From positions 1 to 41,708 of the forward strand of contig JALJEE010000026.1 of assembly GCA_023231475.1 (NCBI GenBank): DNA of 41,708 nt. The letters are read 5' to 3'. This document shows positions 7,726-8,992 of this stretch, piece by piece (the stretch's first letter is position 1; every line of letters starts with the position of its first letter). Below the pieces are notes generated by a model. That model had not been told where the DNA came from, did no database searches, and worked only from the letters and a program-made list of their open reading frames with translations. Source of the DNA: Seison nebaliae. Its lineage: Eukaryota. Made by a program: the position numbers and the translations under genes.

Positions 7726-8992
7726 AATTAGTAAAGGGAATAAGTTTTAACGGAAAGAGAGTGTGTATATGTGTGTCTGAACGGAAGACTTTGAAAAAGA
7801 CAGGATCGCCTCTGTGATTATGATTATTACTATTCCCTGTCATTGTATGTTGAGGTGTCTGAATACAGTCGAAAGTTACGTATGAGATTTGGAAAAGAAG
7901 AAGAGACACTTCTCTTTCTGATGAGAAGAAAAGAGGAGTCGTCTCTAGTGTTGAATAAATTGGATGGTGATGAATATTCGTTTTCTTTTCGAATTAGAAG
8001 CTATTCATCCTTCTCCTACACGTTACATCACATAGTGGGTGATGTATCTCCTCTGCCTTCCCATAATAAACGTCAAAAGAGGAATGAAGGAACAAGTAGA
8101 GGAGGAAAGCATTCCTCATTAACGAAAGAGATCATGAAATGAATGAGAAAGAAATTAAAAAGAAAGAGAATTAATTGGGGGAGAACAAAGCAAGCGACAA
8201 AAAAAATTCTTAATTTCTTCTCTTTTTGTGGAGGATTCGATGAGAAGGCGAAGAAGGAATTAGGAAAGATGAACACAGCGGTCAACTCCTCGTATACTTT
8301 CTCCCCCTCAGACTACCACTACTACATGTTCAGTTGATTCATATTAGAAATTCCCTATCTAGTCTCCTCTTATTGAGACGAGAGGGGGAGGAAAATACGG
8401 GAGGGGAGAAAAAGTGAAGTAAGGAAGAAATAGATCCCTTCTTTCCTTCAACATCAGCCCAAATACTATCACCATTCAACCTCCTCCTCTCCATTCTCAT
8501 TTCATCATATCCACTCTTATTTTTGTCGAATACATAACAATTCTTCCTTACCACTAATTGTCGCTCTCACTCTCCTTTGATTGACGGTCGAGCTTCTCTC
8601 CTCACCCTAAATACTTCCATTGACCAGATAACTACTGAATAAAATGAATGGAAAGAAAATACTGTTCTTCTCCTCCTCGTACATTATGCCTGTACATGAC
8701 TGCTATTCATAGAGGCTGATAAACAAACTTTTATTTACTTCTTAATTACTATGCGATGGTCAAAGTAAAAAATCACTTCATTATTCGACTCTCCATCCAT
8801 TCCAATCATTTCTCCGTCAAATCATAAGCTTTTCCTGCTAAAATTGCATTGCCTTTTTCGTTGTTCTTTTATCATCCTCCGTTTTCGGTACATGTGTCTG
8901 CATTTGCCTGATTTATTTACGTAGAGATACACATACAACATGGTATAACATGTAACTTCATTACTAATTATTTTTAATGTATATTCACAGAT
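7726..8992 (+). ncRNA. Candidate long structured non-coding RNA, possibly telomerase RNA, divergent from TET
   Basis: No credible ORF. Composition shifts to alternating purine and pyrimidine tracts. Five nested long-range helices and several local hairpins whose non-Watson-Crick positions are mostly G-U on the + strand. The 3' part has CCTCACCCT, crossing helices and a hairpin-ACAACA-hairpin-ACA end (see findings). Confidence 0.5.

Follow-up and report, generated by a model that had tools for sequence, protein, structure and literature searches.

A conserved, G+C-richer noncoding island upstream of the TET gene of Seison nebaliae, likely a functional transcript or regulatory element

The 41,708-nt window of Seison nebaliae DNA considered in this study (contig JALJEE010000026.1) is AT-rich, with about 31% G+C, and carries on its minus strand a gene for a TET-type dioxygenase. 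An initial annotation had read the segment at 7726-8559, upstream of TET, as a nested multi-helix RNA domain of about 830 nt that could be the 5' arm of a telomerase RNA or a separate long noncoding RNA (lncRNA). The present analysis shows that this segment is part of a conserved, single-copy, G+C-richer island free of long open reading frames (ORFs). The island is very probably functional noncoding DNA, likely a noncoding transcript or a regulatory element. The large nested RNA architecture and the giant telomerase RNA did not stand; a functional noncoding element, possibly a separate lncRNA, is still a live reading. As it stands, the object is an ordinary one, namely a conserved noncoding element adjoining a regulator gene. 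If the island indeed proves to be a regulatory module of TET or a noncoding RNA under conservation, it would offer a handle, in an invertebrate lineage that has been little sampled, on the control of a methylcytosine-oxidation gene outside vertebrates and insects. G+C-rich islands without ORFs offer a practical route to functional noncoding genes in AT-rich genomes.

Conservation, composition and copy number of the island

One line of evidence for function comes from comparison with a second sequence. Two sequencing runs of one sample yielded low-depth contigs (3-5.5x versus 26-32x) that aligned at 80% likeness; these contigs belong to a diverged relative or haplotype, and they make the whole window open to comparison. 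Nothing aligned at 80% likeness in two runs from another organism of the same study. In one of the two informative runs, the 333-nt block at 8218-8550 showed 19 substitutions, along with 15 gap letters, and in the second run of the same sample the stretch at 8317-8542 showed 14 substitutions among 226 positions and 10 gap letters. For comparison, 44 of 287, 33 of 189, 20 of 120 and 16 of 145 sites differed in the TET coding exons and 24 of 156 in a neighboring gene resembling glycoside hydrolase family 18 (GH18), which gave a substitution divergence of about 6% in 8218-8550 versus 11-18% in coding exons. Most of the TET differences (27 of the 37 listed) fell at third codon positions, which argues that the relative is well diverged and that the block changes more slowly than coding sequence. 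On these alignments, the right-hand 40% of the segment accumulates substitutions at about one third of the rate of the adjoining coding sequence. The block carries eight small frame-breaking indels (+2, +3, +1, +1, +1, -5, +1 and -1), and it is thus not coding. A second alignable piece of 125 nt at 8882-9006 was less conserved, as it differed by 22 substitutions plus 4 gap letters, and was followed in one low-depth contig by a 42-nt skip from 9006 to 9049.

The island itself extends over 1.1 kb at 7751-8850, has a G+C fraction of 0.35-0.43 that matches or tops that of the coding exons, and overlaps the segment at 7726-8559. It is the sole stretch of at least 1 kb in the 41.7-kb window with a G+C fraction of at least 0.36 and without a long ORF. 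The annotation had placed the start of the segment at the end of an AT-rich tract, and the 100-nt G+C profile bears this out, since it rises from 0.12 at 7600-7699 to 0.29 and then 0.37, a real jump at about 7700-7800. At about 8450, the purine fraction flips from 0.55-0.75 to 0.30-0.46. A CpG island was considered and rejected: 7726-9000 contains 31 CpG against 43.2 expected, a depletion due to the purine and pyrimidine tracts, and the ratio of observed to expected CpG in the whole window is 1.14. Stops interrupt all six frames of the island, in which the longest ORF has 115 codons' worth of amino acids (115 aa), and a Pfam search at E <= 1 gave no match for six ORFs located at 7724-9183, in the island and to the right of it. 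Together with the frame-breaking indels in the relative, these results rule out coding exons in the island, which accordingly shows the absence of coding potential that is characteristic of divergent promoter-associated lncRNAs.

The possibility that the segment belongs to a multicopy repeat was addressed with three DNA runs from two studies. In one of them, the k-mer depth in bins covering 7678-8679 was 15.7-20.7 versus 14-16 in the flanking bins, the two further runs were alike, and no second copy of the island was found anywhere in the window; the island is therefore single-copy by depth and has no other copy within the window. Across 2000-12000, the three DNA runs contained no variant letters, and one run, with even depth and an 8.5-kb contig spanning the gap, behaved as whole-genome DNA. 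The annotation had also argued against a DNA inverted duplication, and this view was supported: a blastn comparison of 7400-9200 with the window gave no opposite-strand self-match in the region except a 16-nt palindrome at 7488-7503, and the longest inverted repeats were only 19-29 nt at 70-88%. A 16-nt family at spacings of 167 and 167 nt hinted that the hairpins had arisen in tandem, an idea that was likewise tried and rejected, as four 167-nt units aligned at 47% mean column identity and without register. Tandem Repeats Finder reported nothing in the region, a transfer RNA search found none, and a scan for bacterial-type promoters and terminators, which is irrelevant for a eukaryote, stayed at shuffle level. 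Metagenome contigs were also searched: a TET-exon pattern for orthologous loci gave 108 pattern matches, none of them confirmed, and a 20-mer from the conserved block hit five loci, each only a 20-23-nt chance match to 6000-10000.

Folding of the segment and its local hairpins

The plus strand of 7726-8559 has a minimum free energy (MFE) of -224.5 kcal/mol. Its z-score was -3.69 against 20 shuffles (none as good), -2.62 against 50 dinucleotide shuffles (none as good) and -2.94 against 50 shuffles made inside 50-nt blocks, which leave GA-rich and CT-rich tracts where they are (one as good). The minus strand gave -1.41 (20 shuffles, three as good), -1.92 (40 shuffles, two as good) and -2.61 (40 block shuffles, none as good). 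The better-than-shuffle folding expected of the proposed domain was thus seen, modestly, for the plus strand (-2.6 to -3.7), and it was seen for the minus strand as well (-1.4 to -2.6). The bounds of the segment had been picked to close on a stem. Twelve arbitrary 834-nt control windows, each folded on both strands with 12 shuffles, ranged from +1.78 to -2.86, with two of the 24 values at or below -2.4. The fold energy of the segment therefore falls at the extreme end of the background set by the window itself, not beyond it, and is only weakly better than chance. One control, 24500-25333 on the plus strand, equaled the segment in strength, with a global z of -2.86 against 12 shuffles.

The complementary stretches on which the nested architecture was built are all present at the coordinates given and are complementary as described. 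On the plus strand, two G-T pairs occur in 7736-7741/8540-8545 and one in 7960-7968/8471-8479, and the helix 7844-7849/8529-8534 ends in a G-A mismatch. A partition function computed for the exact segment gave the 7-bp closing stem 7726-7732/8553-8559 a mean pair probability of 0.90; the helices 7736/8545, 7882/8500, 7890/8493 and 7960/8479 stayed at about 0.05, and 7844/8534, 8040/8456 and 8037/8460 at 0.000. Once natural flanks of 200 or 400 nt were included on each side, all eight helix segments, the closing stem among them, fell to 0.000. Enforcing all helices of the frame raised the energy by 23.9 kcal/mol over the MFE, to -200.6 kcal/mol, the same as the mean of the shuffles. Given these low pair probabilities and the cost of the enforced frame, the long-range helices are best modeled as short complementary words that the energy model leaves unused, and the nested multi-helix domain of about 830 nt is rejected, with seven of its eight helix segments at or below 0.05 even in the exact segment.

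Six local hairpins had been listed within this frame, and four of them fold clearly better than their shuffles on the plus strand, on bounds that were chosen by eye. The hairpin at 7902-7946, of about 16 bp, has -20.7 kcal/mol, with z -2.95 on the plus strand and -1.61 on the minus strand, and also appears in the MFE structure of the whole segment. The hairpin at 8047-8105 joins a CT-rich arm to a GA-rich arm (-18.4 kcal/mol; z -3.54 on plus, -1.07 on minus). The hairpin at 8207-8266, of 15+8 bp with several G-U pairs, is the most strand-asymmetric; computed on 8200-8272, it has -22.7 kcal/mol and z -3.64 on the plus strand against -6.8 kcal/mol and z -0.08 on the minus strand. The branched hairpin at 8286-8403, closed by TTTCTCCCCCTC / GAGGGGGAGGAA, folds on both strands (z -3.26 on plus, -2.64 on minus). 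The remaining two are ordinary, namely 7799-7841 (z -1.78, computed on the plus strand only) and 8416-8449 (z -1.02 on plus, -0.01 on minus). The caveat of the annotation that GA-rich and CT-rich tracts pair easily was well placed, as every local hairpin pairs a CT-rich tract with a neighboring GA-rich tract. Its claim that wobble pairs favor the plus strand holds for individual hairpins, above all for 8207-8266; at the level of the domain, the asymmetry is small.

An unbiased scan in 150-nt windows (25 shuffles each) compared seven focal windows with 271 others. The focal means were -0.99 on the plus strand and -0.85 on the minus strand, versus -0.22 and -0.29 elsewhere (standard deviation 1.27), and 3.7-4.1% of the background windows reached z -2.8. 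The region does not stand out in this local scan. It is improbable, in our estimation, that the fold-like features arose by chance in an island without any function. The modest z-scores are matched by one or two of the 24 control values, the local scan is unremarkable and the long-range frame is rejected, as such an explanation expects; however, the substitution divergence of 8218-8550 is about one third of the value that coding exons show in this relative, and no other long ORF-free G+C-rich stretch occurs in the window.

The differences in the relative were also placed on the predicted plus-strand fold of 8200-8560. Of the 11 changes listed (3 substitutions and 8 indels), seven fell on unpaired positions, one in a weak pair and three in strong pairs. 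With 51% of positions paired overall in this fold, such a mapping is uninformative. Insertions of the relative at 8368, 8370 and 8374 fall in a loop of hairpin 8286-8403. No compensatory change was visible among the 11, so that the selection on RNA structure put forward in the annotation found no support here. A far-reaching form of the transcript hypothesis would be a structured noncoding RNA of about 0.9-1.1 kb, conserved more tightly than coding sequence, transcribed head-to-head with TET and serving the TET locus as its dedicated RNA partner or regulator, with the stem-loops at 8207-8266 and 8286-8403 as its conserved core; we regard this form as quite unlikely.

Known RNA families offered no guidance. 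Rfam 15 gave no match in the whole window at gathering thresholds. Over 7000-9700 at E <= 10, it gave 16 matches with E values of 0.1-8.7, all far under their gathering scores, and hence no credible family at either setting. At 8207-8266, the matches were of chance level: mir-320 with 21.6 bits (gathering score 55.5, E 0.1) and MIR815 with 20.5 bits (gathering score 63). That a hairpin, chiefly this one, is a microRNA-like precursor of a small RNA, with the conserved block as its primary transcript, would accord with its 60-nt length, 23 bp, energy of -22.7 kcal/mol and z of -3.64 on the plus strand only, and with the identity in the relative of its left part at 8218-8247, a common 30-mer at a contig boundary. 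However, canonical animal primary microRNAs have a stem of about 33-35 bp including the basal stem, whereas here a 23-bp stem is flanked by unpaired sequence without a paired basal extension. Moreover, such hairpins arise easily from the pairing of CT and GA tracts, and with Rfam matches only at chance level this explanation is very improbable.

The idea of a giant telomerase RNA with a template near 8604 and the segment as its 5' arm fared worst, and it can hardly be credited. It rested on a G+C-rich, ORF-free region with a template-like word nearby. Among nine candidate telomere repeats tried, the longest such word against TTAGGG was the 7-nt ACCCTAA at 8604-8610 on the plus strand, that is, one repeat plus one base; it lies outside 7726-8559, would become 8 nt if the repeat were TTTAGGG, and belongs to a kind of 7-mer of which the window holds six by chance. 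No telomerase family matched at E <= 10, a weak negative because Rfam models may miss divergent invertebrate RNAs. Matches of the H/ACA type reached only 23.7 bits (gathering score 100, E 1.3) and 20.8 bits (gathering score 64). Animal telomerase RNAs, as characterized in PMC8480181, contain a template-pseudoknot, a CR4/5 domain or its equivalent and a box H/ACA, and the sizes quoted there are 312-559 nt for vertebrates and 408 nt for a snail. The proposed total of about 1.27 kb exceeds these quoted sizes. The island thus resembles an animal telomerase RNA in being G+C-richer, noncoding, single-copy and close to a 7-nt word complementary to TTAGGG, and it differs in having no family match, no template beyond a repeat plus one base, and a size that would be two to three times that known from this source.

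Proposed strand and mode of action of the island

Of the specific forms that a functional island could take, a plus-strand noncoding transcript divergent from TET is the one we tentatively put forward, as a possibility. The plus strand is preferred because the individual hairpins fold better on it, because a promoter-like motif at 7716-7743 has a second copy, oriented alike, just upstream of a small ORF, and because an AATAAA lies at 8638-8643, close to the end of the island. Under this hypothesis, a plus-strand transcript bearing a few local stem-loops would run divergently from TET and would act in cis on TET expression. Transcription of the island is itself a proposal here, and its cis-regulatory action on TET is put forward from likeness to the divergent lncRNAs found at genes of chromatin regulators.

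Divergent lncRNAs form a known class at the bidirectional promoters of chromatin and developmental regulators, with LncKdm2b (bioRxiv 10.1101/459289) and cases at cardiac transcription-factor genes (PMC6307297) as examples. Like the LncKdm2b/Kdm2b class, the island stands head-to-head with the gene of a chromatin modifier, TET, is free of ORFs, lies about 0.7 kb from the start codon and is conserved in a relative. Unlike that class, it belongs to an AT-rich invertebrate with a compact genome and not to a mammal, it has a G+C content above that of coding sequence, and it is known from DNA alone. Conserved noncoding elements near developmental genes are similar to the island in another respect, as they too are blocks of a few hundred nt, conserved above coding sequence, with small indels and beside a regulator gene; the block described here differs in being known from one partially sampled relative and in that factor binding is putative. 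The island comes closest to these two kinds, the divergent promoter-associated lncRNAs of chromatin-regulator genes and the conserved noncoding elements.

Several observations weigh against a plus-strand transcript. At the level of the domain, the strand preference is weak, with a block-shuffle z of -2.61 on the minus strand against -2.94 on the plus strand. In six-window running means of the local scan, the region on the plus strand is outside the ten lowest, whereas a minus-strand run from 7501 ranks fourth. The change of G to T at 8386 breaks the middle of the C5/G5 stem of hairpin 8286-8403, the strongest stem, without visible compensation. Conservation was seen for 8218-8550 and 8882-9006; for 7726-8217, no contig of the thinly covered relative is among those listed, an absence that carries no weight of its own. 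No RNA run was listed for 7400-9400, and all runs aligned over the island are DNA contigs. Furthermore, the island lies on the upstream side of TET, a position that a minus-strand leader exon fits equally well, and conservation accompanied by indels suits a DNA-level regulatory sequence as well as an RNA.

A minus-strand leader would make the island a long noncoding or alternative first exon of TET, spliced over the AT-rich spacer into the exon with the ATG, and the constraint would then stem from translational or stability control through upstream ORFs or leader structure. The island is on the same side, upstream of the gene, and no other minus-strand gene lies between 6990 and 9671. Donor-like words GGTAAGG occur on the minus strand at 7596-7590 and 8552-8546, a pyrimidine tract with an AG closely precedes the ATG, at about 7046, and the minus strand also folds better than its shuffles (z -1.9 to -2.6). 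In these respects the island resembles the long structured 5' leaders found in mRNAs of developmental regulators, which are likewise upstream on the same side, noncoding, conserved and furnished with stem-loops. On the other hand, splicing would require an intron of at least 500 nt, about ten times the usual length, as TET introns are about 55-60 nt with weak donors. The G+C fraction of the island (0.35-0.43) is above that of the proximal leader (0.25-0.31), and on the TET strand the individual hairpins fold far less well, as illustrated by 8200-8272 with z -0.08. On balance, we consider the leader exon somewhat unlikely.

Alternatively, the island may act as DNA, that is, as a promoter or enhancer module common to TET and the small plus-strand ORF, rich in GA/CT tracts and short palindromes, with the hairpins as by-products of polypurine and polypyrimidine tracts. 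The mid-position of the island in the 2.3-kb gap between the divergent frames is in keeping with this, and so are the many small indels amid conservation, the purine switch from 0.55-0.75 to 0.30-0.46 at about 8450, and the slight better-than-shuffle folding on both strands that is expected of symmetric DNA features. A palindromic motif at both ends of the gap also fits. However, for a set of factor-binding sites, an unbroken block of 333 nt with about 94% substitution identity is long, and the fold beats shuffles that preserve local composition (z -2.94), though neither point is decisive. A module acting purely as DNA is, in our judgment, rather unlikely.

The motif in question, of about 28 nt, has the form TTCCTTTA(TA)ATTAGTAAAG..AATAA and occurs in two copies in direct orientation on the plus strand. 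Copy 1 lies at 7716-7743, at the left edge of the island, and copy 2 at 9252-9281, 45-75 nt upstream of the ATG of the small ORF, so that the island and the AT-rich flank to its right lie between the copies, which share the 12-mer TAATTAGTAAAG exactly. The core of the motif is palindromic, CCTTTA-ATTAG-TAAAGG in copy 1 and CCTTTA-N5/7-TAAAGG generally. The motif looks like a shared promoter-proximal element, a putative function, and the copies could also be the ends of an old insertion. A separate direct repeat on the plus strand, 8454-8467 / 8602-8615 (TCAGCCCAAATACT / TCACCCTAAATACT), has 12 of 14 positions alike at a distance of 148 nt, and its second copy contains the sole 7-mer of the region that is complementary to TTAGGG.

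The TET gene and its neighbors

The segment at 7726-8559 sits in the 2.3-kb gap that separates two divergently oriented frames, TET and the small plus-strand ORF. As indicated by translation and by intron-bearing sequence, the first coding exon of TET is at 6235-6990 on the minus strand, with its ATG at 6990, and the large exon is at 2293-5634 on the same strand; the gene has small exons as well. The introns of about 55-60 nt begin with the weak donors GTTCAT, GTTCGT or GTATTT. The relatives of the protein carry PF12851, and the closest of them, mollusc TET proteins, share 41-45% identity, which points to a poorly sampled lineage, presumably a spiralian one. Tracts of poly-Gln, poly-His-Gln and poly-Asn are abundant in the protein (2293-5634 and 6235-7041, minus strand). 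The gap that precedes the TET ATG showed no exon for a CXXC-type zinc finger.

Directly upstream of the ATG, the stretch at 7000-7250 on the minus strand, with a G+C fraction of 0.25-0.31, is the probable proximal 5' leader of TET. It is alignable to a low-depth contig of the relative, with small indels at 7027, 7049 and 7059, and it is conserved in this sense. An AT-rich spacer at 7300-7725 (G+C 0.12-0.22) leads from the leader to the island. In the local fold scan, 150-nt windows at 6900-7124 had z -3.0 to -4.7 on both strands; these strong folds coincide with an AAT/ATT repeat that codes for the poly-Asn tract of TET and with the adjacent leader, and the signal is probably a low-complexity artefact.

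On the other side of the gap, the small ORF at 9326-9556, read by translation, has 76 codons on the plus strand and is convergent with a GH18/mucin-like reading frame that lies upstream of TET and ends at 9671 on the minus strand. The small ORF has a C-x2-C motif and a hydrophobic tail, and its ESM-Atlas features (0.91, with 199 of 256 in common) resemble those of PF15055 (DMAC1/Dmo2) clusters. Sequence searches of Pfam and the PDB gave no match to support a DMAC1/Dmo2 identity, and the sole match in the full HMMER library, a bacterial SpaA-repeat protein, was dismissed as spurious. With the ESM-Atlas features as the lone lead, the product is possibly a DMAC1/Dmo2-like membrane protein. An acceptor-like tract (ttctctttag) stands 9 nt 5' of its ATG.

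Farther along the window, 19374-23666 on the minus strand is one open frame of 1430 codons with a signal-like start and a transmembrane-like stretch. It gave a faint match to a cadherin domain (PF23592, E 0.006), below the cutoff, and the frame may encode a divergent cadherin-like surface protein.

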